From the NCBI GenBank assembly GCA_964587045.1, contig CAZPJY010000008.1:1-54378 (forward strand): a stretch of DNA of 54,378 nt, written 5' to 3'. Origin of the DNA: an uncultured Methanosarcinales archaeon (GTDB lineage: Archaea > Nanobdellota > Nanobdellia > Woesearchaeales > CAZPJY01). The position numbers and the translations under genes were made by a program. The first letter of the stretch is position 1, and each line of letters starts with the position of its first letter. Below, piece by piece: positions 2,321 through 39,081 of this stretch. The notes under the pieces are model-generated. The model was given only the letters and a program-made list of their open reading frames with translations. It did not search any database and was not told the DNA's origin.

Positions 2321-3250
2321 ATGTACAGGATTAAGCAATCCCCGGAGGACTTCTGCGTTTTTGAGAGGATGGACCTCAAGCTCTCCGACGAGGGCAGGTA
2401 CATGGTAGCGCTCATGGAAAAGAAGGGCCTCACGACCGAGGAGGCGGTAAAGATCGTCGCCGGCAAGCTGGGGGTGAGGTCAAAGGATGTGGGGTACTGC
2501 GGCGCAAAGGACAAAGATGCGGTAACATCCCAGTACATATCGGTCAAGGGCGGCGGCATACCAAAGGATATGGGCCCGAACCTCAAGCTCACTCCACTCG
2601 GCCGTTCCGACTCGCCCCTCTTCATAGGCGCGCACCACTCCAACGAGTTCAGAATCGTCGTGAGGGGAGTCGATGGCCTGCCGGAGGCTGTGGCCCACGT
2701 GCCGAACTACTTCGACGACCAGCGCTTCTCAAGCATGAACGTGGAGGTGGGACTGGACCTGCTCAGGAGGGATTTTGCGGCCGCGAGCGAAAAGATTGGC
2801 CTGGTCCCGCAAGGGAACGACTTCTTGGCAGCCCTGCGGGCTGTGCCGATTAGAATACTCAGGATGTACATCCACTCGGTGCAGTCCAAGATATTCAACG
2901 AACTCTTGGCAGCAGAGATCAGGAGGCTTGACGGCGCTGTGGAGGTGCCGTACTCACAGGGCAGCATGGCGTTCGCAGATGTGGGCCCGGGCGACCTCCC
3001 GGATAGCATTCCTATCGTTGGTTTCGGCTCCGACGAAGTGCCAGGCGATTGCTCCCTCTCCCCGCGGGACTTCGTTTTCAGGGAGTACCCTCAGCTCTCG
3101 GCAGAAGGCGGGCGCAGGCCCAGCCTAGTCCAAGTGGAGGGGCTAAGGATCTCGAAGCGGGGATCCGACGCCGCGGAAGTGAGCTTCTCCCTTCCCAAAG
3201 GCAGCTATGCAACAGTGGTTATCAGGGCGCTCTGGGCAGGAAGGCCTTGA
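2321..3250 (+). CDS. truD: tRNA pseudouridine(13) synthase TruD
   Basis: IKQSPEDFCV, GAKDKDAVTSQ, NEFRI, PNYFDDQRFS and FSLPKGSYAT motifs; ATG at 2321. Confidence 0.92.
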   Translation: MYRIKQSPEDFCVFERMDLKLSDEGRYMVALMEKKGLTTEEAVKIVAGKLGVRSKDVGYCGAKDKDAVTSQYISVKGGGIPKDMGPNLKLTPLGRSDSPLFIGAHHSNEFRIVVRGVDGLPEAVAHVPNYFDDQRFSSMNVEVGLDLLRRDFAAASEKIGLVPQGNDFLAALRAVPIRILRMYIHSVQSKIFNELLAAEIRRLDGAVEVPYSQGSMAFADVGPGDLPDSIPIVGFGSDEVPGDCSLSPRDFVFREYPQLSAEGGRRPSLVQVEGLRISKRGSDAAEVSFSLPKGSYATVVIRALWAGRP

Positions 3251-4409
3251 CTGCCTTGTAGGTCAGAAGGAACGATTTCGGAAGCCGCTTCCTCTCCGTG
3301 CTCCTGAGCATGCCAAAAAGCCTCGCAATCCTCCAGAAAGCGACAGCACGGGGAGGCATCCACTCGTCGCTGAGCATCCTATGCAGCTCGTCATCGCTGG
3401 GCCCTGAGAAGACACCCCCAAGCGCGCCGTACTTGTACCCAAGGGCTATGATGTCACGGAACTGGATGCCGAAGCGCAGGGCCTTTCCGTACTCCTTCTT
3501 CCAGCGCCGCTGGTACCTCTCTAAGAATCCCGAATCGGCCCTCCCATGTTCCAGGGCTTCGAGTGCGGTCTGGCCTGCGATGCTCCCTCCTTTCAGGGCG
3601 AAATAGATACCCTCGCCGGTTCCGGCTATGACATGGTTGGCTGCGTTCCCGCAGACCATCACCCGGTCAGAGTACGATTTAATCGGTGCCGCAGCAGGCA
3701 CTATGCCCGAGTACTGACTGACCTTTTCAGCGTCGCCGAGATGCTCCTTTACGTGCTGCTCCAGAAGCGACATGAGATTGAGACCTCTCGTCCTCCTGAC
3801 GAAACCGCCAATCCCCGCGTTGACCAAATTTGTACTTTTCGGGAAGATCCAGAAGTACCCCTTGTTCTTCTCGTCGAAGACGTAGGTGAAGGTATTGGGA
3901 TCGGCATTCTTGCATCGGTATATGCCGCCCACGCATGCGAGGATGAAGGGGTCCTGATCCATGAGGCCGAGCCTCTCCTGGATGGCGTAGTGCGCACCGT
4001 GGGCGAGGATTACGAGCTTGGCCTGGTAGGTGCCTTTGTCAGTCATGACTTTTGCTGAATCCCGCAAGACCGAGACGTCCCTTACGCTTTCGCCCAGCCT
4101 CAGGGCACCCTTGATGGGCTCAGCGAGCCACTTCTCGAAACTGGGCCTGTCCAGCTCCAGCATGGGCATCCCAAACTCCCTAATAAGCGGGCCGTAGATG
4201 ATCCTATGCCTCGTCGGGCGGTTCTTGACGAATGGGAAATTCGTCCTTCCGAATATCTCCTGGAACTTATGCGCGGCTATGCCCTCGCCGCACCTGAGGG
4301 GCAGGCCTATCTCCTTCTTTGGGTCGATGATCAGGATATTCTTGCTTTTTAGCGCCCTTGCGGCCATCAGCCCGGCCGGCCCAGCGCCCGCGATTATTGC
4401 ATCATACAT
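3222..4409 (-). CDS. Geranylgeranyl reductase family FAD-dependent oxidoreductase
   Basis: True start MYDAIIAGAGPAG at 4409; PLRCGEG, GYFWIFPK and GNAA...GEGI motifs; overlaps the adk stop. Confidence 0.85.
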   Translation of the reverse strand: MYDAIIAGAGPAGLMAARALKSKNILIIDPKKEIGLPLRCGEGIAAHKFQEIFGRTNFPFVKNRPTRHRIIYGPLIREFGMPMLELDRPSFEKWLAEPIKGALRLGESVRDVSVLRDSAKVMTDKGTYQAKLVILAHGAHYAIQERLGLMDQDPFILACVGGIYRCKNADPNTFTYVFDEKNKGYFWIFPKSTNLVNAGIGGFVRRTRGLNLMSLLEQHVKEHLGDAEKVSQYSGIVPAAAPIKSYSDRVMVCGNAANHVIAGTGEGIYFALKGGSIAGQTALEALEHGRADSGFLERYQRRWKKEYGKALRFGIQFRDIIALGYKYGALGGVFSGPSDDELHRMLSDEWMPPRAVAFWRIARLFGMLRSTERKRLPKSFLLTYKAVKAFLPRAP

Positions 4410-7023: not shown

Positions 7024-7261
7024 CAATAATTCTGTTTAGGTCCAAATTCAGTAAAACTGCACAACACCGGATATTATTGAGATAATACTAAAAAATCACT
7101 ACTCTTTCTCAGTTAATAAAGAAATTATATCGATAAAGGTCAGTTACGGGGCATTTAACCACATATTTTTACTACTATTAAGTAGATTGAAATCAATAGA
7201 TTTAAGAATAGCACATTTCTTCCCGTATTCCTAATCTCTAAACTGTGTGAGGTGTGAATGT

Positions 7262-8359
7262 ATGAAAAAAAATTGGAGAGAGACCACAGAAAGGGGCAGT
7301 GATGAATGGATTGTCCGTAATTTCTGGGAGAAAAACGGGAAATGGTTTAAATGGGGTGGTGGCGGATTAGTCGCCCTCATCACTGGGCTTTCGAGCTTCT
7401 ATACCATCTCCAACGATAGTGTTGGAATCGTCACGACATTCGGACGCTACACAAAGACCGCCGGACCTGGGCTTAATTTCAAGCTTCCCTACGTCCAAAG
7501 CGTTGAAAAAGTCCAAAACCAGGCCATATTCTCCGAAGCGTTCGGCTTCCGCACCCTGAAGGCAGGCGTCAAGACTGAGTACATCGACAACGAGGCTATC
7601 AAGAGTGGCAAGGTAGGCAAAGGCGACCTCTATGACATCATAGATACAGAAGGGCTGAAGCACGTAGGGGATGTGGAAGAGCAGGCGATGGATGTGCTCA
7701 GGGACGAATACCGAATGCTTTCTGGTGACCTGAACATGGCCGATGTCGAATGGGTAGTCCAGTACAAAATCAAGGATCCCGTCGCGTACAAGTTCAACGT
7801 CAAGAACCCAGAGAAAATACTAAGGGACGTATCAGAGGCTTCTATGAGGATTGTTGCGGGTGACGCGAGCATCGACGAAATAATCACCACAGGCAAGTCC
7901 CAAATCGAATTTGAGGTAAAGAAGCGCCTCCAGGACAAGCTTGACTCATACGGTTCAGGACTCGAGGTCACCATGGTACAGCTGCAGTCCCTGAACCCAC
8001 CTGAGAACGTGAGGAACTCCTTCAACGAGGTCAACGAGGCCATACAAGAGAGGTCTGCCAAGATTAACAACGCACAGGAGCTCTACAACAAGGAGATACC
8101 AAAGGCGAAAGGTGAGGCAAAACGCCTCATAGAAGAGGCAGAGGGTTATGCGACCGAGCGCGTCAACAAGGCAAAAGGAGATGTCGCCAGGTTCAAGGAG
8201 ATCTACGCGGAGTACAGGAAGGAGCCCGAGATCACGAGGAAGCGTATGTTCCTCGAGGCGCTGCCTGAGATCCTCAAGAACACCGACAAGATAATCTACA
8301 CTGAGGATGAGACCGGACTCCTGCTAAAGCAGCTTAACCTGGGGGGTGAGTCAAAATGA
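7262..8359 (+). CDS. hflK: HflK-like SPFH protein
   Basis: N-terminal TM; PGLNFKLPY, MLSGDLNMADVEWVVQYKIKDP, IPKAKGEA, AKGDVARF, PEITRKRMFLE; GAGGTG RBS upstream. Confidence 0.9.
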   Translation: MKKNWRETTERGSDEWIVRNFWEKNGKWFKWGGGGLVALITGLSSFYTISNDSVGIVTTFGRYTKTAGPGLNFKLPYVQSVEKVQNQAIFSEAFGFRTLKAGVKTEYIDNEAIKSGKVGKGDLYDIIDTEGLKHVGDVEEQAMDVLRDEYRMLSGDLNMADVEWVVQYKIKDPVAYKFNVKNPEKILRDVSEASMRIVAGDASIDEIITTGKSQIEFEVKKRLQDKLDSYGSGLEVTMVQLQSLNPPENVRNSFNEVNEAIQERSAKINNAQELYNKEIPKAKGEAKRLIEEAEGYATERVNKAKGDVARFKEIYAEYRKEPEITRKRMFLEALPEILKNTDKIIYTEDETGLLLKQLNLGGESK

Positions 8360-9408
8360 AATCGCTGACCAAATGGATCACAGGAGGCATATTGAGCTTT
8401 GCGGCGCTGATCACCTTCAATTCAAGCTACTACACTTTGGATCAGCATGAGCAGGCAGTCGTTACCCAGTTCGGAAAGCCGGTGAAGGTCGTGCTAAACC
8501 CGATATCAAACAATCCGGCTGAGAAGGACGCGCTGGTTGACCACATCGAGAAGGACATCAAGGCGTACACCACCAAGGGCAGTCTCCTCAATCCGGAGAT
8601 CGATGCGTCAGGAGCAGGCTGGAAATGGAAGGTGCCTTTCATCCAGGATGTCAACACATTCGACAGGCGCCTGCAGGAATGGGACGGATTCCCAGAGGAG
8701 ATCCCAACCAAGGACAAGGTGTACCTGCATTTCGACCCGACTGCGCGATGGAGGATTACCAACCCATACATCTTCTTCAACACCCTGCAGGGTCTCGAGA
8801 GCAATGCGCTGGCGAAGCTCGACGACATCATCGACGGCGTGCTTAGGGAAGAGGTAAGCAACCGGAACGCGATCGAGAGCATCAGGACCAGCAACCGGAA
8901 GATGTCGGTCAACGACCCCGAGCTCGAGGAGACCGTGAAGGTCGAACAGATCGCCGAGGGCCGCGACAAGCTGGTGCACTACATCACCGAACAGGTCAAC
9001 AAGAAGTGCGAGCAGTTCGGCATCGCTGTCGAGGACTTCATGATCAAGAGGCTGGTCTACGTCGACAGGGTAAAAGAGAAGGTCGAGCAGCGCATGATAT
9101 CCGAGCGAAAGCGGATCTCTGAGAGGTACAGGTCGGAGGGCGAGGGCGAGTACTCCCGCATCCAGGGCGAAAAAGAGCGCGAGCTAAAGAGGATAAGGTC
9201 CGAAGCTTACAGGACCGCAGAGGAGATCAAGGGCAAAGCTGACCGCCAGGCTGTCAAGATATATGCCGACGGCTACAAGACCGACCCGGAGTTCTACTCC
9301 TTCATGCAGTCTCTCGAGAAGCTCAAGGACGCTAAGAACTCGACGCTCATCGTCGGTCCGGACAACGAGCTCTTTAAGTACCTGTACAAGGGAGACAGGA
9401 AGAGATAA
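8356..9408 (+). CDS. hflC: HflC-like SPFH protein
   Basis: QAVVTQFGKP, WKVPFIQ, WDGFPEEIPTKDK, RMISER, RSEGEG, DPEFYSF; ATGA overlap with hflK. Confidence 0.9.
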   Translation: MKSLTKWITGGILSFAALITFNSSYYTLDQHEQAVVTQFGKPVKVVLNPISNNPAEKDALVDHIEKDIKAYTTKGSLLNPEIDASGAGWKWKVPFIQDVNTFDRRLQEWDGFPEEIPTKDKVYLHFDPTARWRITNPYIFFNTLQGLESNALAKLDDIIDGVLREEVSNRNAIESIRTSNRKMSVNDPELEETVKVEQIAEGRDKLVHYITEQVNKKCEQFGIAVEDFMIKRLVYVDRVKEKVEQRMISERKRISERYRSEGEGEYSRIQGEKERELKRIRSEAYRTAEEIKGKADRQAVKIYADGYKTDPEFYSFMQSLEKLKDAKNSTLIVGPDNELFKYLYKGDRKR

Positions 9409-18264: not shown

Positions 18265-19344
18265 ATGGCAAGGGTTTTTTTGTACGTCGCAATGTTCCTA
18301 CTGTTCTTCAGCGTACTTTTCATGATCCACGTCGTCGTCGGTCTGAGGCTCCTTAAGATGTTTTCCATCAGGCCTTCATGGCTCATCTTTCTCGCATCAG
18401 GTCTCCTTACGCTGTCGTTCGTGGTAATGACCGTGCTTGAGAGGACCTGGCCCAATTTCATCACAAAGGTTTTCTATATCGCGAGCAGCACCTGGCTTGG
18501 GGTGCTGCTACTGCTTTTCGGACTGGTGCTCATCGCGGAACTGCTCATGCTGGCTTTGCCTGCAGCAAGGCCTTTCATGGGATGGTCTGTAATCATTCTG
18601 ACGCTGATATTGACAGGGATATCAGTTGCGAATGCTGCCACCGAGACGGTGAGGGAAGTGAGCGTCAGAATCGACGGTCTTGATGAGGAAGTCCGTCTGG
18701 TCCAGATATCGGACCTGCATCTCGGCACAGCCCGGGGAGGAAAATACCTCAAAGGCATCGTCGACAGGGTCAACTCGCTCTCACCGGACGCCGTAGTTAT
18801 AACAGGCGACCTGTTCGACAGCTCCAGGAAGCTCCCTCCAAGTGATTACGCTCCCCTCAACCAGCTGGAGGCGCCAGCCTATTTCATAACAGGTAACCAT
18901 GAGGTCTACGAAGGCCTGGACTACGTTAGGAGCACGCTCAAGACGACCAAGGTGAGGATGCTCGACGACGAGATAGTGGACTTTAAGGGGATCCAGCTGG
19001 TCGGAATATCATACCCTCCGGATGAGAGGAGGGGCAACGACAAGGTCGCAAGTGTCGGAATCGACAAGGATAAGCCGGCGGTCCTGCTCTACCACGCACC
19101 CCTCGGGCTTGATGAGGCTAGGGATGCTGGGGTCGACCTTCAGCTGTCGGGCCACACTCACGCCGGGCAGGTTTTCCCGTTCAACTTGTTGGTCAGGCTG
19201 GTCTATCCATATGTCTCAGGGCTGCATGACCACGGAGGGATGAAGATATACATCTCGCCTGGCACTGCCACGTGGGGGCCTCCCATGAGGCTTGGCTCGA
19301 GGAACGAGATAACCCTGCTGACCCTCAGCCCAAAAGATTTATAA
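18265..19344 (+). CDS. Membrane-anchored metallophosphoesterase (YkuE/YaeI-like)
   Basis: 4 N-terminal TMs; SDLH, TGD, GNHE, SGHTHAGQ, WGPPMR. Confidence 0.9.
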   Translation: MARVFLYVAMFLLFFSVLFMIHVVVGLRLLKMFSIRPSWLIFLASGLLTLSFVVMTVLERTWPNFITKVFYIASSTWLGVLLLLFGLVLIAELLMLALPAARPFMGWSVIILTLILTGISVANAATETVREVSVRIDGLDEEVRLVQISDLHLGTARGGKYLKGIVDRVNSLSPDAVVITGDLFDSSRKLPPSDYAPLNQLEAPAYFITGNHEVYEGLDYVRSTLKTTKVRMLDDEIVDFKGIQLVGISYPPDERRGNDKVASVGIDKDKPAVLLYHAPLGLDEARDAGVDLQLSGHTHAGQVFPFNLLVRLVYPYVSGLHDHGGMKIYISPGTATWGPPMRLGSRNEITLLTLSPKDL

Positions 19345-19370
19345 GTCCGTCAGGACCACGATTCTTAATC

Positions 19371-20453
19371 ATGACCAAGTTGATAGACCCTTACGGGTCA
19401 GAGCTGGTAGAGGATTATGCCAAGATCATAAAAGACTTCGGCCTAGAGCCCTTCGACCCAGGCAGCATGCCGGACCCGAACCGTGCGATGCGCAGGGGTG
19501 TGGTCTTCGCAGGCAGGGACCTGAAGATTATCGCCCGGTGCATCAAGGAAAAGAAGCCTTTCTACGTGCTCTCCGGCATAATGCCCACCAATGAAAGGAT
19601 CCATTTCGGCAACAAGCTGGTGGTCGAAAACATAAGGTACTTCCAGGAGCACGGCGGCCACGCCTACATGCTAATCGCCGACCTCGAGTCAGCTGCAGCC
19701 AGGGACGTGTCCCTTGAGGAGGCGAGGAAGAGGGCCATGGATTTCCACGTCCCTGCCTATATCGCGTTGGGGCTGGACCCCAAGAAGACCACGTTCTACT
19801 TCCAGTCCGAGAACAAGGACGTGATCCACCTGGCGTTCGAACTTGCACATAAGGTCACGTTCAATGAGTTCAAAGCGATCTACGGCAACACCGATCCGGG
19901 CAGGATCATGTCAGCTATCACTCAGGTCGGTGACATACTGTATCCCCAGATAGCAGAGCGCATGCCGGGAGTGATACCTGTCGGCATCGACCAGGATCCG
20001 CACATCAGGCTGTCCCGCGACATAGTTGCGAGGACCCGGAAGAAGAAGTTCTTCCCCCCCTCTTCGATCTACCACAAGTACACTCCCTCACTCGACGGAG
20101 AGATCAAGATGTCCAAATCCAAGCCGGACTCATGCATAACCCTGCCTGAGGACGACAAGGAAGTCGCAAGAAAGCTCCGCAAAGCACTAACAGGCGGGAG
20201 GGAGACCGTCGAAGAGCAGAGGAAGAAAGGTGGCAGACCAGAGCAGTGCATCATATTCGAGCTGCACAAGCAGCACCTCATAGAAGACGACGAGGAGCTC
20301 GAGAAGATTTACAATGACTGCAAGAGCGGCAGGATGCTCTGCGGCGAGTGCAAGAACATAGCGATAGAAAGGATGCAGGCCCTGCAGGACCGCCTCGTCC
20401 GAGGCATGTCGGAGGTAAAGACATCCGAGCTCAACTTCATAAAGTTCAATTAG
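19371..20453 (+). CDS. trpS: Tryptophanyl-tRNA synthetase
   Basis: HFGN (HIGH-like), PVGIDQDPH, KMSKS, TGGR, C-x23-C-x6-C-x2-C. Confidence 0.95.
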   Translation: MTKLIDPYGSELVEDYAKIIKDFGLEPFDPGSMPDPNRAMRRGVVFAGRDLKIIARCIKEKKPFYVLSGIMPTNERIHFGNKLVVENIRYFQEHGGHAYMLIADLESAAARDVSLEEARKRAMDFHVPAYIALGLDPKKTTFYFQSENKDVIHLAFELAHKVTFNEFKAIYGNTDPGRIMSAITQVGDILYPQIAERMPGVIPVGIDQDPHIRLSRDIVARTRKKKFFPPSSIYHKYTPSLDGEIKMSKSKPDSCITLPEDDKEVARKLRKALTGGRETVEEQRKKGGRPEQCIIFELHKQHLIEDDEELEKIYNDCKSGRMLCGECKNIAIERMQALQDRLVRGMSEVKTSELNFIKFN

Positions 20454-20498: not shown

Positions 20499-20684
20499 AT
20501 GCGGAACGTCTTTGCGCCGTTATCAAGCTCATTCATGCTCGCGTCAATGCTAGGCTTCCTTTTTTCTGCTGTTTGGATTATTCCAAGGAACCTGCAGTGG
20601 GGCGTGGCGTTTTGCGTGGTTTTCGCGGTGATGTTCATTTCAGCAGTGGTGTCCATGACACACGCGCCAGCTGAGGATATGTAG
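20499..20684 (+). CDS. Small two-TM membrane protein (61 aa)
   Basis: GGGGTGA RBS, TTTTATA box upstream, two hydrophobic helices. Confidence 0.75.
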   Translation: MRNVFAPLSSSFMLASMLGFLFSAVWIIPRNLQWGVAFCVVFAVMFISAVVSMTHAPAEDM

Positions 20685-20715
20685 TGAGGGGAAGAGGTGA
20701 GTATGCGGTGAGAAC

Positions 20716-21876
20716 ATGGAAATCGATTACGATTCTGTCTGGGAACTCGCATACTCAAATGTCCAATCGCACCTCATCGATGAGGGCAGGGAAAGCCTAA
20801 AAGAGAACATACTCAAGGCGCAGGAATTCTTGACAGACATTAAGGCAGGGCATTCGAAGAGCCTTGAGAGGATACTTATCCCTCCGCTTAGGTGGCTGTT
20901 CGCCTCCCTTTACCCAAAGATAGAGGCTGACGGCGTAGGTCCGGTGAGGGAACAAAGGGATGCTGTCAGGATATACACGCCGACCCACAGGAGCATCATT
21001 GACCCTTTCATCCTCGGTCTGGGGCTGATCGACGAAGGGGAGGACTATCCCCACTTCGCAGCCGGCCGCAACCTGTACAACCCCTTAACCTCCTGGTTCC
21101 TGAGAAGGCTGAAGGCTATAGCGACCAAGCGCAACTTCCGAGACAGGAGATACCACCTCTGCCTGAAGGAATACGCAAAGAGCGTCCTGATCCATGGTGG
21201 GGAACTGTGTTTTTTCCCTGAAGGGGGGAGACCCAGGAACGGCGGGCTCGGACGGATGCGGCTGGGTCTCCTGGGTGCTGCTGTCGGGGCCGCGATAGAG
21301 GCGGATGCGCGGTACGTGATGTTCCCAACAGGGATAGCATACAACCACATAATGGAGGAGAGGCAGCTGGCCCGGGAAGCCAAGACGCTCACGGGCTGGC
21401 GGGCCTTACGGGAGCTGATCGCGCACACAGCCAAGAACATGGGCAAGGGCGAGGTTGCCATCAATTTTGCCGAACCCATCGATCTCACCTCGTTTGTGGA
21501 GGGCAAGACCAAGCAGGACATACCTGACCTCAGGGAAGAGCTCGCCTCAAAGGTCCGTGCGGAGCTAGCCAAGAGTTTCCCAGTGTTTCCTACAGCCCTC
21601 ATGTCATATTCGCTCATCAAGTCACCGGACATCGGGGGCGGGTACAGCCGTTTCCTCCTGGACATGGGGGTCCTGCTCGGGCGAAAGGACTACCGGCCCC
21701 CTATGGTCGGCGGTTTTGAGAGACGACCCAAAGAGGTCTTCGACCAGTCGATTGACGACTTTGTGAGCAGGGGAATCATCCGCATCGAGGACTCCAACCT
21801 GAGCATATTGGAGATGGACGTGATGAAGGTCTACTCCAACACCATCTGCCATCATTTCGACGAGGTGCCCATATGA
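20716..21876 (+). CDS. PlsB/DHAPAT-like glycerolipid acyltransferase
   Basis: HRSIID (HxxxxD), PHFAAGRNL, FFPEGGRPRNG, FPTGIAY, INFAEPIDL. Confidence 0.85.
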   Translation: MEIDYDSVWELAYSNVQSHLIDEGRESLKENILKAQEFLTDIKAGHSKSLERILIPPLRWLFASLYPKIEADGVGPVREQRDAVRIYTPTHRSIIDPFILGLGLIDEGEDYPHFAAGRNLYNPLTSWFLRRLKAIATKRNFRDRRYHLCLKEYAKSVLIHGGELCFFPEGGRPRNGGLGRMRLGLLGAAVGAAIEADARYVMFPTGIAYNHIMEERQLAREAKTLTGWRALRELIAHTAKNMGKGEVAINFAEPIDLTSFVEGKTKQDIPDLREELASKVRAELAKSFPVFPTALMSYSLIKSPDIGGGYSRFLLDMGVLLGRKDYRPPMVGGFERRPKEVFDQSIDDFVSRGIIRIEDSNLSILEMDVMKVYSNTICHHFDEVPI

Positions 21877-23216
21877 AGCTGTACAAGAAGGTCGCAGTTC
21901 TCCCTGAGGGCGTTTGGAGCCAGACAGTTGCGAGCCTCGGTGCGGACCCCAAGAGGTGGCATCCGGCAGACAAGTTTTCAGACAAGAAACCTCCTGAAGA
22001 AATTAGGATGTTTTCATACTTTGATTGGAGGCAGGAGGCGCTTGAGAAGATGATAGGTGACCGGTCGGCCTATGCCCCGCCAGCGCACTTCGACTGGGGG
22101 TCCCTCGGCATCGCTGTCAGGGCATACTCTCCCAGGCACTGCCAGCTCTCAGTGGAGGAGCTGGGCATCTGCGACCAGATAGGTTTGGGAGATTTCGGAC
22201 GTGCTGTATTCAAGACGGTCAAAGACGCTGACCTGATCATACTCGGTCCGAGGTCTAACGAGTTCACCATGTACACGAGGGCATTGAGGGACATATTCGA
22301 CTCGGCACCGATGGCCAAGCAGAGCCCTGACCTGGTCTCGTTGACCAAAGGCCTCTTCCTCGAATACGACAAGCAGGGCAAGGTGTCTGGAGTAAAACTT
22401 CCATATGAGATTATGGAGGACCACATACCCCAGAGGATAAGCAGGGCAATCATGGTCGGTCCGAACATTTCCAAGGAGGTGAATAAGTACGCTCCCACGA
22501 CCTCGCTGCTCGCCACGAAGCAGCACCGCCTGGGAGGGCGCAGGGACGAGTTCCTCCAGGACCTGAGACGTTATCTCAAGGGCTTCAATTTCGGCGTGGA
22601 CTTCTCCGTGCATCCCCACGCGCTGGGCTGGGCGACCGCGGTCAAGAACATAACTGCCATCGCCATGGGCCTTGGAAACTACTACCTGTTCAAGCAGATG
22701 GGCGATGAGTATACAGACTACAACTCCAACCTTTTGGGATGCGTCGTCACGATGGGTTCTCGAGACTCCTGGAACACCTTCACCCAGCTTATAAACAGGC
22801 ACGGGCTGTGGTTCCGCCTTCATCCGGAGGAGTACCACAACAGCTTCGCAGTCCAGGGAGACCGGGTGGCTACGGCCAGTTCGCTCAACTCAAGGAACGT
22901 CAGGTTCGGTTTCGAGTTCGCGAAGCAACTTGACATGAGGGGAGGGGAAGTCTCACCTGAGGACAAGGATGAGATCAGGGATCATGTGATGAACGATGTC
23001 ATCAAGATGGCTGTGGAGGGCGTACCGACGGTCAAGGACCTTCATGAGGTCATGGAGGCGTATTCCATCAAGGGCACGCCTTTCTACAGAGGGGTTTATG
23101 AGACCCTGTTCGGCTCCCTTTCCACAGAGAAGTTTGCGGGCATGCTGCTCGACCTCACAGGCAGGTATGAGTCCATCGGCACCAGGACATTTACTCGCTT
23201 CCTCAAAAAGCCTTAA
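21873..23216 (+). CDS. Divergent NAD(P)H-dependent glycerol-3-phosphate dehydrogenase (GpsA-like)
   Basis: SLTKGL, MVGPNISKEV, AVKNITAIAMG, GDRVAT..SLNSRN, AVEGVPT; Rossmann motif altered to LPEGVWS; ATGA overlap with the acyltransferase. Confidence 0.8.
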   Translation: MKLYKKVAVLPEGVWSQTVASLGADPKRWHPADKFSDKKPPEEIRMFSYFDWRQEALEKMIGDRSAYAPPAHFDWGSLGIAVRAYSPRHCQLSVEELGICDQIGLGDFGRAVFKTVKDADLIILGPRSNEFTMYTRALRDIFDSAPMAKQSPDLVSLTKGLFLEYDKQGKVSGVKLPYEIMEDHIPQRISRAIMVGPNISKEVNKYAPTTSLLATKQHRLGGRRDEFLQDLRRYLKGFNFGVDFSVHPHALGWATAVKNITAIAMGLGNYYLFKQMGDEYTDYNSNLLGCVVTMGSRDSWNTFTQLINRHGLWFRLHPEEYHNSFAVQGDRVATASSLNSRNVRFGFEFAKQLDMRGGEVSPEDKDEIRDHVMNDVIKMAVEGVPTVKDLHEVMEAYSIKGTPFYRGVYETLFGSLSTEKFAGMLLDLTGRYESIGTRTFTRFLKKP

Positions 23217-23243
23217 ATATAATCCTTTTCTGGCCGTTCCTTC

Positions 23244-23837
23244 ATGGGTTTCGAGAGCGCGTTTTCCGATGAGAGGAACAGGGGGATAATCAACCTTTAC
23301 ATCAAGGGAGAGCGTAGAATGCTGGACCATTACGCCTACAGTGAGCTTGAGAGGTCCCACCCCGCACTGAAGGCGATGCTTGAGGACCTGAGGCATTCCG
23401 ACCCCCTCTCTGATCTTGAAATGGAGATTCAGTACTTCGAGGGGCTGAAAAAGGCGCACACCGGGAGCCCTGACCATCCCCAGACCATATTGATTACGCA
23501 GTACGACAAAGTGATGCCCTTGCAGAAGACTACTTACCTATTGACATTAGATGTGATAAATTCCTTCGCGTCCAACAAGGGACAGGACCCCTTAAAGGTA
23601 GCTCAGGAATCCTGGGGTGATGTCAAGAGGAGAATATTTCCCTCACTTGAAGACGCCATGAACTACGAGCTGAAGATAATAACACTCGATACCATGGCGA
23701 TCGAGTCGATGAGGCCTGTCGCTGAAGCGATGGAGAGGATGGGGTTTCCGTCAAAGCAGGACATCTCGGCGCTCAAGAGATACCACCTCCGCGGATACAT
23801 CACTATTTATCGGAATCTTTATCGAACTTCTCCTTAG
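23244..23837 (+). CDS. Hypothetical protein (197 aa)
   Basis: ORF downstream of a TTAAATA box; no family recognised. Confidence 0.65.
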   Translation: MGFESAFSDERNRGIINLYIKGERRMLDHYAYSELERSHPALKAMLEDLRHSDPLSDLEMEIQYFEGLKKAHTGSPDHPQTILITQYDKVMPLQKTTYLLTLDVINSFASNKGQDPLKVAQESWGDVKRRIFPSLEDAMNYELKIITLDTMAIESMRPVAEAMERMGFPSKQDISALKRYHLRGYITIYRNLYRTSP

Positions 23838-24111
23838 CCATCTCTTCTTTCCAGAACACTTCATGGCTCGCCCTCTTCTCGAATAGGGCTATCGAGAGGT
23901 TTATGATGCTGGTCTCGTAAGCTTTCATGCCTTTTCCCTTAAGGATGCTCTTTGCGTCGTCGATGCATTGGGCCATTATGCGGAGGTTCTCCTCCCTGGC
24001 CTTGGCCTCGATCGCCCCTTCCTCATTCTCGGAGAGGTAGACGTCCACCCATTTGGGATAGACACTCTTGTCAGTGCGTTTTGGAAACGATTTCGAAAAC
24101 AATTGGCTCAC
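23803..24111 (-). CDS. Hypothetical protein (102 aa)
   Basis: GTG start; helical, charged composition; convergent overlap with the previous ORF. Confidence 0.7.
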   Translation of the reverse strand: MSQLFSKSFPKRTDKSVYPKWVDVYLSENEEGAIEAKAREENLRIMAQCIDDAKSILKGKGMKAYETSIINLSIALFEKRASHEVFWKEEMAKEKFDKDSDK

Positions 24112-24151
24112 CCCCGAGTTGGGGTTGTCGGTAGATATAAAAAGATTATGC

Positions 24152-25474
24152 TCAGAAATCCGTCGCTTTCTTGTCCTTGTGCACAGCTATCGGAGCCTCA
24201 CCACCATGCCAAGTGAACCTGGGCCTGATCCTCATCGGGTAGATCCTCTCGTTCGTGTCGTCGAAGATGACTGCCGAGCCCTTGACCCTGGGCAGGTTAT
24301 TCATTGCCGCAGTCAGGCCTTCGCGCATGTAGCTTTGTGTCAGGTCTCCGAGGGCTTCTGTGTCGACTTTTGCGGTTACCCTGTGGCTCAGGACTATATC
24401 GGACTGGGTCATTACGTCCCTGTGGATCTTGCCCGGCTGCTGGCTGGCTATCATCAGTGATATGCCGGGCTGACGGCCTTCCCTCATGACCGTCACCAAC
24501 GGCTGGGTCGACGCGTTTTCGCCTTCCTTAGGGAGGAACTCGTGTGCCTCGTCGATTACAAGCCAGACCAGAGGAGTCTTTTGCTTCTTCTTTTTGTCCT
24601 CCTCACCGAAGTAGTGCATGGCAGAGTGGAGATCCTGGTACTCCTCATCCTTCCTGGAGAGCATCCTCTGTATGAACAGCTTCTTGGCTATCAGCCCGAC
24701 AACGAGGAACTTGATCTTCCACCCGTTTTGGGCAGTCGCATAGCAGCTTACATCGAGAATGCTGATCCTGCCAGGCTGGGCGAGCTCGCTTATCTTGGTC
24801 CCACCCTGCTGGAACAGACCCCACGTGTCTGCAGCGAGGAACCTGTTCTCGACCGCGTCCTTGACTGCCTGTTCAGTGCGGTCGTCAGCGCGGATCCGTC
24901 CGATTATATCCTGGATTGAAAAGGAGCCTTTCTCCTTCTTGAGGGTGTTGATCGTACGTTCGATTAGGACGCCAATTGGGTCGTTTTCGCTCACCTCAAA
25001 GGTCATCAGCCAGTCCTGCGCGTCGAATTCTGAAGGGTCTATCGAGAAGGGCTTGTCTGTCGGTATGCCTTTCTCCTTGAACTCCTCGTAAAATTTGTAG
25101 GGTGTGAAGATGGTCACATCCATTCCCTTGGGCTCAAGACCCCACTGCTCGAGGAGCAGCTGGTCCTTCTTGTTGGGGTATTTCATGGTCCAGTATATAC
25201 CCATGGTGTCAAGCAGGATGAAGGATAGGTTGCCCATGACGTCTGGTTCGAGGCTTGACAGACCTTCGGCTATGACTCCCATCGTATATGACTTTCCGCT
25301 TCCCCTCTTGCCGCAGACGAAGACGACATGCGACCTCGCAACGTCGAGGAACATCTTGTTTGAGAGGGATGTCGTCTGGCCCATCTTGACGTAGTGCTTG
25401 CCTATGAACACGGTGCCTGAGGTCCCGAACTTTTCCATATCTGCCTTGCTGCGGCCGATGATGACGTCGTACAT
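24152..25474 (-). CDS. HerA/FtsK-like P-loop ATPase (DUF87)
   Basis: Walker A GKRGSGKS, LLDTMG, Walker B LVIDEAH, REGRQPG, ASQQP. Confidence 0.88.
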   Translation of the reverse strand: MYDVIIGRSKADMEKFGTSGTVFIGKHYVKMGQTTSLSNKMFLDVARSHVVFVCGKRGSGKSYTMGVIAEGLSSLEPDVMGNLSFILLDTMGIYWTMKYPNKKDQLLLEQWGLEPKGMDVTIFTPYKFYEEFKEKGIPTDKPFSIDPSEFDAQDWLMTFEVSENDPIGVLIERTINTLKKEKGSFSIQDIIGRIRADDRTEQAVKDAVENRFLAADTWGLFQQGGTKISELAQPGRISILDVSCYATAQNGWKIKFLVVGLIAKKLFIQRMLSRKDEEYQDLHSAMHYFGEEDKKKKQKTPLVWLVIDEAHEFLPKEGENASTQPLVTVMREGRQPGISLMIASQQPGKIHRDVMTQSDIVLSHRVTAKVDTEALGDLTQSYMREGLTAAMNNLPRVKGSAVIFDDTNERIYPMRIRPRFTWHGGEAPIAVHKDKKATDF

Positions 25475-25707
25475 ACAACTATCATGCTGTAAAGATGGTT
25501 ATAAAACTTTATCCGTACTTGAGAGTGAGGATTGTTACATGTGGGTAGGAGCAATATTTATGTTTTATCCTCGGTAGGGGTAATCTCTTATGTGTCTGTT
25601 TTCCAAAAGTTTTAAATACTACAACTTATGAGGATGCAAGGTAGCGATTTTTTGCTATCATTCGACAATGATAAAAGGGATTGGGTGGTCCCAGGAGGGT
25701 GATCTCT

Positions 25708-26985
25708 TTGGCAAAGAAGAAACACAAGAAAAAGGTGAAGCGGAAAGGAATGTTAGGGTTTCTTGTGCTGATTCTCGCGATTATTATCATCGCAGTCGCG
25801 CTATTCAAATATTCAACGTATCTCTTCCCGCCCAAGGCGGAAGAAGCAGCTGTAGCTGCGTACGTCAACGGCGAGCCGATCTACATGGCTGATCTCAACG
25901 AGGCCTACGACAGTCTGCCTGACCAGTACAAGTCCTTCATAACCAAGGAGGCGCTGCTGGAGCAGATGGAGGAGGAAAAAATCCTTCTCATGGAAGCAGA
26001 GAAACTCGGGTTCACGGCCTCAGATGAAGAAGTCAATACCCTACTGGACGAAGCCTTGGCCCAGAGCCCCTACACAATGGACGAGTTCGAGGCGCAAGTG
26101 GCTGAGCAGGGGATGACCATGGACGACGTCCGCGACTACTACCGAAAGCAGGTGCTTGTGACCAAGCTGCTCAATGAGACTGTAATCAGCAAGGCCACGG
26201 TCACTGAGCAGGAGATTGAGGACTACTATAACGCCAACCCGTCGCTTTTCCAGGCACCCGAGACCATAAGGGCTAGCCACATCTTGGTGGATACCGAAGA
26301 GGAGGCCCAGGAAGTTTTAGAAATGCTACAGAACGGCTCTGATTTCGCTGAGCTGGCCAGGGAGAGGTCCATCGATACTGGATCGGCCCAGCTGGGAGGG
26401 GATCTTGACTTCTTCCCGCGAGGGGTCATGGTGCCAGAGTTCGAGAATGCCGCTTTCGCGCTAGATGTCGGTGAGCTGTCAGATATCGTGAAGACGGATT
26501 TCGGATATCACATCATACTCGTGACCGACAAGAGCGAGGCCAGGACCGTAACCCTTGCTGAAGCGCATGATCAGATTCAGCAGCAGCTGGAGGCCGAAAA
26601 GCAGAGGACGCTCTACTTGGACTACATCAACAACCTCAAGAGCTCCTACGATGTGGTGCCTGAGACAGGCATACTCGAGGGCGAGTCGTTGGAGGTCACT
26701 GACGATACCGTAGACCTCGAGGCCTTCGCATCATGCCTTGCGGACAAGGGAGCCGTGGTCTACGGCGCTGTCTGGTGTACATCCTGCAAGAAGCAGGCCG
26801 ACATGTTCGGCGACAGCTGGTCGCTCATAACCTACGTCGAGTGCGCTGACGGCAACACCCAGACTGTGGAATGCACGGAAGCCGGCATCACTGGATACCC
26901 CACGTGGGTGATAGATGGCGAGCAATACCTCGGCTGGATGGATCTTGGGGAGATATCTACCATAAGCGGGTGCCCGCTTTCTTAA
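25708..26985 (+). CDS. PrsA/SurA-like parvulin peptidyl-prolyl isomerase with C-terminal thioredoxin-like domain
   Basis: TTG start after GGAGGGTGA; TM anchor; AYVNGEPI, ASHILV, SIDTGSA..GGDL, FGYHII; C-terminal YGAVWCTSC...YVEC...GYPTW. Confidence 0.88.
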   Translation: MAKKKHKKKVKRKGMLGFLVLILAIIIIAVALFKYSTYLFPPKAEEAAVAAYVNGEPIYMADLNEAYDSLPDQYKSFITKEALLEQMEEEKILLMEAEKLGFTASDEEVNTLLDEALAQSPYTMDEFEAQVAEQGMTMDDVRDYYRKQVLVTKLLNETVISKATVTEQEIEDYYNANPSLFQAPETIRASHILVDTEEEAQEVLEMLQNGSDFAELARERSIDTGSAQLGGDLDFFPRGVMVPEFENAAFALDVGELSDIVKTDFGYHIILVTDKSEARTVTLAEAHDQIQQQLEAEKQRTLYLDYINNLKSSYDVVPETGILEGESLEVTDDTVDLEAFASCLADKGAVVYGAVWCTSCKKQADMFGDSWSLITYVECADGNTQTVECTEAGITGYPTWVIDGEQYLGWMDLGEISTISGCPLS

Positions 26986-36119: not shown

Positions 36120-36887
36120 ATGGGCGAGATATACTTCATGAGGCGGATAAACGAGCAGGAAGTCTACTTCGGGCTCCATGACATGGGCAGGTCGGCCTGG
36201 AGCGTGGACGTCGATTTCATGTGTTCTGAGGGTTACGAGCGCCTGAGGAAACAGGTCGGCAGGTGCCTGGATAAACAATCCCTGACCTCTAACTTTTCAT
36301 ATACCCAGGATGGGGAGTATCCATACAGCTTTAAGGTTGACATGCCTTCCCTTAATGGCCCGTTCGGCATCACGATTACCCCTCCCTCAAACAACTTTGA
36401 AGGATCTAGCTTCGGTTTCCAGTCATCTTTCCTCGCCACAGAAGAAGCTGTAAGGGATGTTGGGGAACACGATTCCCTATGTTCGATGGTCTATGTTTCT
36501 TACGGAACCATGCTCGGGATATTGGGCTCAAGCCACCGCATTCCACAGCATGAGTTCCCTTCGTCAGATGACATCGCGCGCGGGACCGCATATCTTTTCA
36601 AGCGGTACACCCGGGCGTACGGCAGCCAGGTCGACGCCATGCTGACCTATGCAAAGATTGACAAGCTACCCATCGAGCCTGCCTGGTCGATGATGCTTCG
36701 CAAGGCCAAGGCGTTCGCGTCGATTGGCGACCATTCTGCCATAATATACGCCGGTATCCTCGACGGGGAGCTGAACAGGATGTCTTGTGCGTACAACCAA
36801 AATAAGGATGACAAGCTGCTTGATGACATGATCAGCCTCAGGAAAGGTCTGGAAGAAATTTCTGAGAAGCTGGGTGGTTCCAAATGA
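36120..36887 (+). CDS. Hypothetical protein (255 aa), paralogous to the C-terminal part of the next ORF
   Basis: CTTTAAATA box upstream; shares sequence blocks with 36884-38080. Confidence 0.7.
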   Translation: MGEIYFMRRINEQEVYFGLHDMGRSAWSVDVDFMCSEGYERLRKQVGRCLDKQSLTSNFSYTQDGEYPYSFKVDMPSLNGPFGITITPPSNNFEGSSFGFQSSFLATEEAVRDVGEHDSLCSMVYVSYGTMLGILGSSHRIPQHEFPSSDDIARGTAYLFKRYTRAYGSQVDAMLTYAKIDKLPIEPAWSMMLRKAKAFASIGDHSAIIYAGILDGELNRMSCAYNQNKDDKLLDDMISLRKGLEEISEKLGGSK

Positions 36888-38080
36888 TTCCCAGCGGTGT
36901 CGCCGACGAATTCATTCATTCATACGACGAGGGCGGAAGCGAGATACAGACCCTTCTTAGGACATACGACTATGAGTGGAAGTTCGGCCTATTCTTTGAA
37001 AACGAAAGTGCCCTAATCAAGGAAGTGAAGCATAAGGGCAGGAAGGTTGATGCGTCAAATTTCGTCTGGAGTTTCAAGTTCTCCCCCGAACCTTATACCC
37101 TCCACATCGAAAAGGAAGGAGAGAGCTACAAGTATGCCTTCAACACTTTCACCTGCATTGATGATACTATCGAACCGGAAAACAACAAGGCAAACATCAT
37201 GCGTGATTACCAGCATTTCCTATCAAGGTTTTCCAATGAAGCATCCAAAGCCGGGCTGTTCCCTTCAATGCAGGGCCTGGACAGGGCCTTGGATTCCCTC
37301 GTCGAGAAATATCTGGCAAAGTGCGGCATCCGACTCTCTGGTCCCTCAGCCAATCCGGACGTGATCACCAAGGTGGACTCTGGGATCGAGGTGAGGATGA
37401 AACTCAACAGCCTCGGGGACAACTGGTCATTCGATGCTGAATTCCCTATCCAGCAAAGCTATCGGCTCTTCTGCAGTTTCATCGAGAAGAGGATGCCTAC
37501 CGCGAGACCAAGCGTTGACAAGAGGGTTGCTCACTATGAGTTTGAAGTGCCAGATGACCACCCTCCCCAGCCACATCCTCAACTTTGGGTTGTCGACGGC
37601 GAAAACCAGCGTAAACTGAGGTTCTCATCCCGCATTCTCGCTACAGAGAAGGCCATCATACAGGAAGGGACTATGGATAAGGATACCAGGTGGATGGTGA
37701 AGAGGGCAGCAAACGAGTACGCTTACCTCCTGAGCAGGATCACTTATTTCGGGTTCCCGAAATTCCCCAACCCCCACACCCTCCATGACGGCTTCACTGA
37801 GCTCGTCGAGAGCTATGCGAGACTGAAAACAGGAGGAGCTGACCTATTAAGCCAACCTACTTATGAGGACTTGGCTCTCTTGAAACTGGAGGAAACTCTA
37901 GCAATGGTAGGCGATGCAAATAGAACGCACGAGTTGGAAGAGAACGCCAAACAACTGCTGGGCTTCTTCAACAACCTTGGGCGGGGCGATTTCGAGAGCA
38001 ATCCGGAATCCATCGACGTTCGTGTCAAGCTGTGGGAAGGGCTACAGACCTTGAAAGAAAAACTGGGAGATAAGTTTTAA
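36884..38080 (+). CDS. Hypothetical protein (398 aa), probable duplicated domain
   Basis: ATGA overlap with the previous ORF; long clean ORF. Confidence 0.75.
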   Translation: MIPSGVADEFIHSYDEGGSEIQTLLRTYDYEWKFGLFFENESALIKEVKHKGRKVDASNFVWSFKFSPEPYTLHIEKEGESYKYAFNTFTCIDDTIEPENNKANIMRDYQHFLSRFSNEASKAGLFPSMQGLDRALDSLVEKYLAKCGIRLSGPSANPDVITKVDSGIEVRMKLNSLGDNWSFDAEFPIQQSYRLFCSFIEKRMPTARPSVDKRVAHYEFEVPDDHPPQPHPQLWVVDGENQRKLRFSSRILATEKAIIQEGTMDKDTRWMVKRAANEYAYLLSRITYFGFPKFPNPHTLHDGFTELVESYARLKTGGADLLSQPTYEDLALLKLEETLAMVGDANRTHELEENAKQLLGFFNNLGRGDFESNPESIDVRVKLWEGLQTLKEKLGDKF

Positions 38081-38105
38081 ATAGTCTCCTTCTACTCTCT
38101 TCGAC

Positions 38106-38180
38106 GGGCCCGTAGCACAGCCTGGATAATGCGCTGGCCTTCTAAGCCGGAGATCGGGGGTTCGAATCCCCCCGGGCCCA
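38106..38180 (+). tRNA. tRNA-Arg(TCT)
   Basis: GGGCCCG acceptor stem; CTGGC-CT-TCT-AA-GCCGG anticodon arm; GGGGG-TTCGAAT-CCCCC T arm; TTTTAAATA box upstream. Confidence 0.95.
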
Positions 38181-38325
38181 TTCAGATTGGCTTTACAAGT
38201 TATCGATCATTACATCCCTCCTAGGGATTTATCACCCATCTTGCTCCGAGAAAAATCTTTTTTTTACACAACATATAAAAATAGAACCCCTCCCCTCAGG
38301 CCCATAAAGAATGAGGTTGATACCA

Positions 38326-39021
38326 ATGAGATGGATTTTTACGATCGCTTTGATGCTGTTCCTAGTCGGATGCAGCACGGCTCCCTCTAATGTGATGGAG
38401 CAGGGGAGTATGACGAATGAGCCTTCTGTTGTGGATGAGCCTGCTGTTGTGGATGAGCCTCCTGACAGCGGTTTCACCGGTTTCAAGGAGATGATAGGGC
38501 TTACCCCGACGTACATGGTGAGCTATACATATACTGCTGCTGGAGAAAGCTCTACGATGACACAGTACTTTAAAGGTGGCAAAATGCGCGTCGACAGCAC
38601 AGCGGAAGGCGTATCCTCCCGTGTCTATATTATTGATGGCACCGCCACCACCTGCACAAACCAAGATGGTTGGATGTGCCTGGAAATGCCTGAGGCAGAA
38701 GGAACAGAAGACAACGGCCTTGCGAACATCCGCACTGATGTCGATTCCTATGAGGACTCAGTCACGTTTAAAGGGACGAGGAATCTCCTGGGAGAGACCA
38801 CGAACTGCTATGGCGTAACGATGCCAGGGACTGCATATACCTATTGCTTCACTGCTGAAGGGATCCCCTTGCTCATGGAGGGCAGCTCTCAAGGAGTGGA
38901 GTGGAGCTGGGTGGCGACTTCGTTTTCTAGGGATGTGGATGACTCAGCCTTCGACCTGCCCGCGCAGCCTCAGAGTCTGGAGTCGATGCTGCCGCCAGGC
39001 GTAGAGATGCCGCAGATATAG
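38326..39021 (+). CDS. Predicted lipoprotein, beta-rich
   Basis: Signal peptide with lipobox LVGC; GAGGTTGA RBS; KMRVDS and DDSAFDLP resemble LolA-like beta proteins. Confidence 0.7.
   Translation: MRWIFTIALMLFLVGCSTAPSNVMEQGSMTNEPSVVDEPAVVDEPPDSGFTGFKEMIGLTPTYMVSYTYTAAGESSTMTQYFKGGKMRVDSTAEGVSSRVYIIDGTATTCTNQDGWMCLEMPEAEGTEDNGLANIRTDVDSYEDSVTFKGTRNLLGETTNCYGVTMPGTAYTYCFTAEGIPLLMEGSSQGVEWSWVATSFSRDVDDSAFDLPAQPQSLESMLPPGVEMPQI
38417..38460 (+). repeat. 18-bp in-frame tandem repeat (about 2.5 copies) encoding a VVDEP linker
   Basis: ATGAGCCT-(T/G)CTGTTGTGG repeated with period 18. Confidence 0.8.
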
Positions 39022-39081
39022 CTATTTTTTTCTCTTTTTTGTAATTTACTACAGCGAGCTTGTTTGCCGGAAACTCTGTAG

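Follow-up and report, generated by a model that had tools for sequence, protein, structure and literature searches.

The window analysed here comprises positions 1 to 54,378 (54,378 nucleotides) of contig CAZPJY010000008.1, contig C8 in the 1.6-Mb, 50-contig genome of an uncultured archaeon of the GTDB order Woesearchaeales (assembly GCA_964587045.1; marker completeness 100%, contamination 0.53%). On its plus strand, a gene for a short PlsB/GPAT1-type acyltransferase of 386 aa (20716..21876) is followed by a gene for an enlarged GpsA-family NAD(P)H-dependent glycerol-3-phosphate (G3P) dehydrogenase of 447 aa (21873..23216). Archaea normally make ether lipids on glycerol-1-phosphate (G1P), and GpsA together with PlsB performs the first steps of bacterial G3P ester lipid synthesis. 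The first-pass annotation had described two translationally coupled genes with an ATGA overlap and a small membrane-protein gene upstream. Inspection of the open reading frames (ORFs) confirms this arrangement: bases 21873-21876 read ATGA and belong to both ORFs, and they are preceded by a gene (20499..20684, plus strand) whose 61-aa product is a two-helix membrane protein outside known families (two hydrophobic stretches, no Pfam or NCBIfam match). Neither protein of the pair has a transmembrane span, as judged for the acyltransferase by hydropathy. Below, G000 denotes the genome carrying the window, other G numbers denote further genomes of the same order and L numbers individual loci.

The surroundings of the pair follow a gene arrangement conserved across the order, which runs from TrpRS through the small membrane gene, a slot, a 102-aa ORF and HerA to SurA. 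The upstream anchor in the window is tryptophanyl-tRNA synthetase (TrpRS; 19272..20453, plus strand, start probably near 19371), assigned by PF00579, by NF008926 (372.9 bits against a cut-off of 320) and by synteny. Downstream, the conserved 102-aa ORF (23803..24111, minus strand) has homologs adjoining HerA in G003, G096, G132, G116, G089, G195, G220 and G212. The HerA-like ATPase (DUF87, PF01935; 24152..25474, minus strand) keeps its position in G003, G096, G155, G060, G116, G114 and G158, and does so also where the slot is empty, for example in G094 and G237. The SurA/PPIase gene (25681..26985, plus strand; Pfam) adjoins HerA in G003, G096, G155, G060 and G116.

The pair is a real, old and lineage-specific module of this archaeal order. 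Locus comparison used the 30 best-scoring small-gene loci, a set enriched by construction because its profile was built from acyltransferase-adjacent copies; TrpRS lies upstream in 27 of them, a PlsB-like gene directly downstream in 11 (one being a 70-aa remnant, in G073) and gpsA directly downstream in 1. Both genes occupy the slot in G000, G096, G155, G003 (where the contig begins inside the acyltransferase) and G060 (split over two contig ends). The acyltransferase is the sole one of the two there in G132, G240, G114, G158, G170 and G223, and gpsA in G007 and, probably, G116. In G094, G237, G089, G195, G220, G212 and G179 the slot is either empty or taken up by something else. Acyltransferase and GpsA are also paired at other loci in G229, G202, G144, G088 and the unpublished G105.

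In codon use the two genes resemble the rest of the genome (37th and 54th percentile; third-position GC 0.71-0.72 against a mean of 0.70). Contigs of run X1 span both the small gene-acyltransferase and the acyltransferase-dehydrogenase junction with 0 differences, and locus L193 is identical at 99.9% to positions 22200-24746; both may derive from the source sample. Runs X2 and X3 yielded short pieces only, and X1 stretches without coverage are uninformative. A metagenome scan with a two-sequence profile returned no relative, and a single-protein scan returned only L193, near-identical to the window. The archaeal host named in the first-pass annotation is borne out by the neighbours in the window, namely TrpRS (best matches archaeal-type), GatDE, TopoVI, RIO1 and NucS.

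Sequence and fold of the two proteins

The 386-aa acyltransferase (ACYLTRANSFERASE) is a member of the AGPAT/LPLAT superfamily. PF01553 scores 57.1 bits against a cut-off of 23, which places it inside the LPLAT family as the first-pass annotation had expected, and GPAT_C (PF19277) scores 28.7 bits against 25. Read against the superfamily motif set (HxxxxD, GxxFxxR, xxEGxx, P) found in the available text of PMC8753187, the protein has H91-x4-D96 as motif 1, F-P-E169-G-G-R172 as motif 3 and P204 as motif 4, along with A-G117-R-N119-L. Motif 2 is kept in part, with R139 retained, the glycine replaced by K133 and the phenylalanine by A136.

Sequence and fold comparisons both place the acyltransferase nearer to PlsB/GPAT1 than to PlsC. 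Of the NCBIfam models, those of PlsB score best (TIGR03703, 109 bits against 618.5; NF003441, 120 against 610). Alignment to E. coli PlsB covers residues 219-490 of the latter with 28% identity over 276 aa (E 5e-24), against E 0.004 for PlsC; relative to the 807-aa PlsB, about 210 residues are missing at the start and about 170 at the end. The AlphaFold2 (AF2) model (pLDDT 88.2) finds human GPAT1 (8e4y) as its best Foldseek match (E 5.6e-18, TMq 0.77), against TMq 0.37 for PlsC 5kym, and plastid GPAT, PlsC and PatA all lie at TMq 0.28-0.43. The structural match to 7zkq chain T, which we take to be tafazzin, is weak (TMq 0.39). The best 150 matches among 1.84 billion representatives consist of the protein itself, one 157-aa fragment (61%) and mostly proteins of ~800 aa at 27-35%; among 10 whose names were looked up, one is a PlsB, one an acyltransferase and most are nameless.

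The acyltransferase is thus a truncated PlsB-like protein and not a PlsB equivalog, being half the length, below the cut-offs and outside the bacterial PlsB group in trees. It shares with bacterial PlsB (E. coli NP_418465; TIGR03703/NF003441; PDB 9vuq) and human GPAT1 the catalytic domain, the HxxxxD, G-x-N-L and EGGR blocks and part of GPAT_C, and differs from them in its length (386 aa against about 800), its incomplete motif 2 and its membership of a separate order-wide clade. The first-pass assignment to a PlsB-like enzyme with HxxxxD, AAGxNL and FPEGGR blocks therefore holds for family and motifs, but not for a full-length PlsB. By family, the protein would be expected to work like PlsB/GPAT1. 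E. coli PlsB is described as G3P-specific in the available part of PMC13400652. GNPAT and tafazzin belong to the same superfamily and offer precedents for dihydroxyacetone phosphate (DHAP) as acceptor and for CoA-mediated transacylation (tafazzin; available part of 10.64898/2026.02.05.703992), GNPAT being likened here by family and not by sequence or structure.

The dehydrogenase belongs to the GpsA/NAD(P)H-dependent G3P dehydrogenase family and has its two-domain fold. Both Pfam G3P dehydrogenase (G3PDH) domains are present (N domain, PF01210, 29.9 bits against 23.1; C domain, PF07479, 48 against 25), and the protein falls below every NCBIfam GpsA cut-off (PRK00094, TIGR03376; best 64.8 against 257 bits). 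For its AF2 model (pLDDT 88.8), the best 19 listed Foldseek matches are all G3PDHs, with E values from 3e-18 to 9e-13. Inspection of a 48-sequence alignment (G000, 46 other sequences of the order and E. coli GpsA) reveals that K159, G196-P-N198, K258-N259, D330, S340-R341-N342 and E382 are kept, of which K159, K258, N259, D330, R341, N342 and E382 fall in invariant or near-invariant columns. The catalytic and substrate residues map to E. coli K110, G139, K195, N196, D248, S258, R259, N260 and E285. The protein thus has the fold and all substrate and catalytic residues of GpsA/GPD1 (E. coli NP_418065; PDB 3k96, 1x0v, 1txg). Unlike these enzymes, it is ~110 aa longer than E. coli GpsA, carries some 12 short insertions and ends in a basic amphipathic tail, has PxGxxS in place of GxGxxG, and is coupled to a PlsB-like gene.

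The altered motif lies in the Rossmann nucleotide-binding loop, where GxGxxG is replaced by P11-E-G13-V-W-S16 (PEGVWS; PEGVWG in G003). The first position is glycine in 45 of the 48 aligned sequences and proline in G000 and G003. Residues 7-22 are identical between these two genomes at 13/16 positions against 48% overall (binomial p 0.007, region picked post hoc), so that the loop looks selected rather than decayed, as far as a post-hoc test can indicate. The first-pass description of a GpsA-like dehydrogenase accordingly stands as to domains, fold and catalytic residues, and needs amending as to the extra length and the nucleotide-binding loop, both of which it overlooked.

The four dehydrogenases of 447-462 aa (G000, G003, G155, G060) are all coupled to the acyltransferase at this locus, against 309-390 aa for 36 other GpsAs of the order. 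In the tree they group with G229 on long branches (SH-like 0.995). Beside the catalytic lysine, the long proteins show GVE changed to ALG, and asparagine changed to proline or serine in G155 and G060. The closest homolog among 6,308 candidates, and the sole close one, is P0002, labelled Candidatus Woesearchaeota archaeon (43% BLAST identity); P0002 and the G003 dehydrogenase were counted as one case. Across 185,579 species genomes only one close relative was found, and a search of 151 genomes at E 1e-25 matched 2, G000 included. A predicted complex of the two proteins (AlphaFold-type; score 0.01, mark 0.32) is evidence neither way.

Distribution in the order and gene content of the genome

Distribution was assessed in 251 genomes of the order that are at least 85% complete. 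Up to six of the genomes counted are unpublished (G105, G124, G166, G185, G187, G189), and no conclusion rests on those alone. GpsA-family proteins occur in 64 genomes, FabF in 18, CDP-alcohol (CDP-OH) transferases in 141 and GGGPS in 3, and the acyltransferase profile (A2) matches 80 at E 1e-5 with PlsB-like and PlsC-like proteins pooled. GpsA and an acyltransferase match coincide in 38 genomes, with GpsA only in 26, acyltransferase only in 42 and neither in 145; kin are not independent in these counts. Among 151 genomes drawn from the class, about 130 of them from other orders, only G000 and the same-order G030 match at E 1e-14.

For the tree, 35 long acyltransferases were extracted, with about 15 more long-frame matches left out, and were set against 45 sequences from outside the order (every third of 119 PlsB-size matches, E. 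coli PlsB and four others). Thirty-four of the 35, from as many genomes, form one clade together with one 538-aa protein (P0015) (FastTree SH-like 0.985), which recurs in IQ-TREE -fast on a 60-sequence subset (SH-aLRT 98.5). The exception, a 680-aa protein of G203, groups with the mid-length bacterial proteins P0004, P0011 (labelled Acidimicrobiia) and P0017; its gene (L071:884-2926) encodes a full GPAT_C and may represent a separate transfer or a contaminant contig. The order-wide clade has long branches and inner relations that the tree does not resolve, copies from the slot do not form a group of their own, and the sampling of bacterial sequences favours matches of the G000 protein. Given the long branches and this bias, monophyly apart from bacterial PlsB is suggestive and no donor is named. 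An earlier tree with a PlsC outgroup was set aside as unresolved, PlsC itself not being monophyletic, and likewise gave no donor.

The rest of G000 was then considered for enzymes acting before and after the pair. Family searches, each run with control genomes that gave matches, returned no second PF01553 protein, AMP-binding ligase, G1P dehydrogenase (G1PDH) family, ketoacyl synthase (FabF/B), GGGPS, CDP-OH transferase, acyl carrier protein (ACP), CdsA, CarS, PlsY or CoaBC. Single-sequence searches of 12,016 ORFs, which are less sensitive than profiles, returned no PlsX, FabH/D/Z, AccA, DgkA, Aas, LplT, GlpQ/T/A/K/F, ClsA, Dxr, thiolase, acyl-CoA dehydrogenase, electron-transfer flavoprotein (ETF), desaturase or Psd. 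The only UbiA protein passes the DPPR-synthase cut-off and not that of DGGGPS. A genome check for the archaeal G1P ether pathway, proposed at first pass, thus finds it absent, with no G1PDH, GGGPS or CarS and a UbiA of the DPPR-synthase type. Present are triosephosphate isomerase (TIM), two DAGK/YegS kinases, a PLD-like protein, HAD and alpha/beta hydrolases, a short-chain dehydrogenase/reductase (SDR) and two cis-prenyltransferases. A weak CarS match (C22:12260-12472, E 0.003) was rejected because it lies antisense to an 880-aa gene and the CarS profile found nothing, and a CoA_binding match proved to be a stand-alone 124-aa protein and not an acyl-CoA synthetase.

Relatives that combine a long acyltransferase with GpsA were searched in the same way (nine genomes with G000: G003, G096, G155, G060, G144, G202, G229 and G088). 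CarS is found in 2/9 and an AMP-binding ligase over the cut-off in 3/9; 'CdsA' matches in G096 and G003 are CarS-like instead. FabF occurs in four of the eight that belong to the 251-genome sample, and ACP (PF00550) in none of five, three of them with FabF. FabF adjoins the pair in G144 and G088 and the acyltransferase in G057, an adjacency that ties the acyltransferase family to acyl-lipid synthesis. FabF without detected ACP was seen in G096, G144 and G155, and FabF often stands alone with no other fab genes beside it.

Proposed function and competing explanations

From families, folds, catalytic residues, coupling, synteny and the gene absences within the limits of the searches, we infer activity, direction, acyl donor and product fate as follows. 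With a probability of about 0.5, the pair would make lyso-phosphatidic acid from DHAP and external acyl groups, as an old, vertically inherited first-step glycerolipid module. The dehydrogenase would reduce DHAP, for which TIM is present, to sn-glycerol-3-phosphate, and the truncated PlsB-type enzyme, acting at the membrane surface, would transfer an acyl chain to give 1-acyl-G3P (lyso-phosphatidic acid, lyso-PA). The acyl group would come from outside, because the searches of G000 found neither fatty-acid synthesis nor ACP, an acyl-CoA ligase or CoA synthesis, a setting that differs from that of bacterial PlsB, with its ACP or acyl-CoA supply; host acyl-CoA or a scavenged phospholipid, the latter by way of enzyme-bound CoA, may serve as the source. 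Because PlsC, CdsA/CarS and CDP-alcohol transferase were not found either, the product would remain a lyso-lipid or enter remodelling of host-derived bacterial-type lipids, for which the two DAGK/YegS kinases, the PLD-like protein and the HAD and alpha/beta hydrolases are candidates. The pair is best read as what is left of a bacterial-type capacity for glycerolipids across the lineage. The first-pass proposal that the organism makes or remodels acyl-G3P lipids from scavenged chains gains support in this form. A bacterial-type membrane is not shown for this genome, in which no plsC, no acyl-CoA ligase or other acyl-donor supply and no step beyond lyso-PA were found.

Several findings weigh against lyso-PA synthesis by the pair. 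No acyl donor or downstream enzyme was identified in G000, so the pathway is not closed, and the claim for this genome is limited because of that incompleteness. With 50 contigs in the assembly, a single gap might conceal both CarS and CDP-OH transferases, whose genes lie together in relatives. The change of the first loop glycine to proline makes NAD(P)H binding uncertain, and acyltransferase motif 2 has lost its G and F. Finally, often only one of the two genes, or nothing, is found in the slot, and many members of the PlsB-like clade have degenerate motifs, both of which fit decay.

An unlikely alternative is an acyl-DHAP route, in which the acyltransferase acylates DHAP in the manner of GNPAT, a member of the same family according to the available text of PMC8753187, and an enlarged, membrane-leaning dehydrogenase reduces acyl-DHAP to lyso-PA. 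The restriction of the 447-462-aa dehydrogenases to this coupled locus and their clade with G229, the substitutions beside the catalytic lysine, and the amphipathic basic tail in G000 would all fit such a change of substrate. Yet the DHAP-binding residues K159, K258, D330 and R341 are intact, other coupled dehydrogenases (G096, G144, G088) are normal in length and motif, the top sequence matches of the acyltransferase are PlsB-size, and long branches can attract. The acyl-DHAP reductases described so far are, to our knowledge, SDR-family enzymes, which also counts against this route.

It is improbable that the pair is a decaying or repurposed relic, descended from a fuller pathway with one or both proteins past their ancestral chemistry. 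The PxGxxS loop, the partial motif 2, the lack of an acyl source and downstream genes in G000, the 70-aa acyltransferase remnant in G073 and the many empty slots would be expected of one. In contrast, both reading frames here are intact and coupled, the catalytic residues persist at an overall identity of 48% to the nearest relative, conservation of the altered loop exceeds the average (in the post-hoc comparison above), and both models fold confidently.

A catabolic or redox use is quite improbable; here acyl groups would be stripped from scavenged lyso-lipids and G3P oxidised to DHAP for lower glycolysis, or GpsA would serve as an NADH sink. Both reactions are reversible in principle, and G000 contains TIM together with enolase-like and phosphoglycerate-mutase-like ORFs (the latter two identified by eye from their N termini). 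The 26 genomes with GpsA and no acyltransferase match, and the fusion of GpsA to a HAD phosphatase in G188 and G080, can be read the same way. GpsA-family enzymes are, however, normally biosynthetic, searches of G000 yielded no GlpQ, GlpT, GlpK, GlpF or beta-oxidation genes, and the FabF linkage in relatives points to synthesis. In the two fusion genomes, GpsA carries the phosphatase at its C terminus (L079:1538-3139, L080:4638-6221), and the single polypeptide would turn DHAP into glycerol.

Distinctly improbable is the view that complete bacterial-type phospholipids are built in G000, with the absent genes lying in assembly gaps or too diverged for detection. The 50 contigs allow for gaps; G096 has the slot pair along with FabF, AMP-binding ligase, CarS and CDP-OH transferase; and 16 chosen relatives with plsC(-plsC)-gpsA operons have CDP-OH transferases in 16/16, AMP-binding ligases in 16/16 and CarS in 14/16. 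Against this stand the marker completeness of 100%, the several unlinked loci that would all need to be missing, the failure to detect CarS in 7/9 of the long-acyltransferase and GpsA genomes, and the lack of CDP-OH transferases in G144, G202, G229 and G088. Mis-assembly or bacterial contamination, which bacterial-type genes in a metagenome-assembled genome might suggest and for which a chimerism check had been proposed, is extremely improbable and largely refuted by synteny, since the identical locus architecture recurs in other families of the order, codon use is typical and the X1 contigs and L193 reproduce the region.

Beyond lyso-PA synthesis by this one pair, a wider proposal for the order is possible and we hold it tentatively. 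An ancient truncated PlsB-type clade at a core locus would accompany loss of the G1P ether pathway and the use of G3P acyl-ester lipids in the archaea's own membranes, with lyso-lipids made here from scavenged acyl groups and full phospholipids made in relatives through a chimeric route of GpsA, acyltransferase, archaeal CarS and CDP-alcohol transferase. If true, these would be archaea whose natural place in the lipid divide is the bacterial side. The PlsB-like clade coupled to GpsA suggests that they swapped ether-lipid synthesis for bacterial-type acylation. The acyltransferase is also a candidate enzyme for the lyso-lipids of small-cell groundwater fractions, though these fractions are mostly CPR bacteria in the available text of PMC7242380.

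For Woesearchaeota, a G3P dehydrogenase and fatty-acid genes of bacterial type have been published already, in PMC6431249 and in the available part of PMC8204110. In the latter, the G3PDH family identifier in the table is that of a broad FAD-oxidoreductase family and may not mean GpsA, and a supplementary figure has plsb, plsc, plsx and plsy rows, where a plsB call in DPANN may already stand. Archaeal PlsC, PlsY and GpsA are treated in PMC6431249, whose lipid-gene survey found no archaeal PlsB, an absence repeated for Asgard archaea in the accessible text of a 2026 paper (PMC13400652); PlsB is mentioned generically only in PMC13014828. FabG/I/Z and cyclopropane synthase genes in DPANN appear in the available text of PMC10936187. 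The usual description of Woesearchaeota is that they cannot make membrane lipids (PMC8421398), and according to the accessible part of 10.1101/2025.11.11.687807 the ancestor of Nanoarchaeota is inferred to have lost lipid synthesis. Our literature search, with most subscription papers outside its scope, found no text report of an archaeal PlsB, of a PlsB-like and GpsA pair, or of this clade.

Neighbouring genes and related modules

The small membrane gene, pointed out at first pass as preceding the pair, does not belong to a lipid module and is a near-universal gene of the order. Its profile (A5) matches 214/251 genomes, mostly in single copy, and a role as dedicated lipid-gene partner was rejected on that count. 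The family comprises unannotated two-helix membrane proteins of 60-80 aa (APL..SFML.S...F..MF.....SMT; 20499-20684 in the window, L141-L170), usually encoded directly after TrpRS, and represents an undescribed core gene and a possible marker of the order. A geranylgeranyl-reductase (GGR)-family FAD protein, also pointed out at first pass, is encoded by a real ORF (3222..4409, minus strand; TIGR02032 144 bits, cut-off 158.8) and shows no link to the pair; it was rejected as a module part, lying about 16 kb off on the other strand and below the family cut-off. It sits in a genome without GGGPS or DGGGPS.

A second module occurs in relatives (L126-L129; G139, G098, G022, G127) and consists of acyl-CoA dehydrogenase, etfB, etfA, plsC, plsC and gpsA, with thiolase, and mostly also an SDR, further upstream in G098, G022 and G127. 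Its composition suggests ACP-independent acyl-CoA supply to phosphatidic-acid synthesis. These plsC(-plsC)-gpsA operons resemble the G000 pair in being bacterial-type G3P acyl-lipid genes of DPANN mostly without GGGPS. They encode short PlsC-type enzymes and a canonical GpsA, have acyl-CoA dehydrogenase/ETF genes upstream and are accompanied elsewhere by CarS and CDP-OH transferases, whereas the G000 pair is of the PlsB subgroup, lies at a different locus and lacks downstream genes. In G015 (L125), a fatty-acid desaturase directly follows gpsA. G127, with plsC-plsC-gpsA and no GGGPS match, also has a head-group cluster (L188, C6:53000-64000) of three CDP-alcohol transferase genes (one tandem), phosphatidylserine decarboxylase, archaeal CarS and a flippase domain, and a chimeric phospholipid pathway is possible there.

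Elsewhere in the order, a PlsB-like gene adjoins a PIG-L-type deacetylase in G018 (L002, Pfam-confirmed, with a GT4 glycosyltransferase) and in G159 (L140, by eye), hinting at glycolipid synthesis. A 1035-aa fusion of AMP-binding ligase and HMG-CoA reductase (L136:7795-10902, G135) has a PlsB-like gene, a gene for a DAGK-family kinase and plsC-gpsA in its vicinity. Within the window, a 197-aa ORF (23244..23837, plus strand) starts 27 bp 3' of the dehydrogenase, has no Pfam or NCBIfam match and is unlabelled in the relatives' loci displayed. Further ORFs without Pfam match bring the range to 139-498 aa (36120-39969, 44783-47349 and 48204-50156; one is DUF6384). A flippase-like LPG_synthase_TM protein (PF03706; 1132..2127, minus strand) lies downstream of TruD on the opposite strand, and two tandem SPFH/Band 7 genes (7247..9408, plus strand) occupy an A-rich stretch, with GC being lower upstream.

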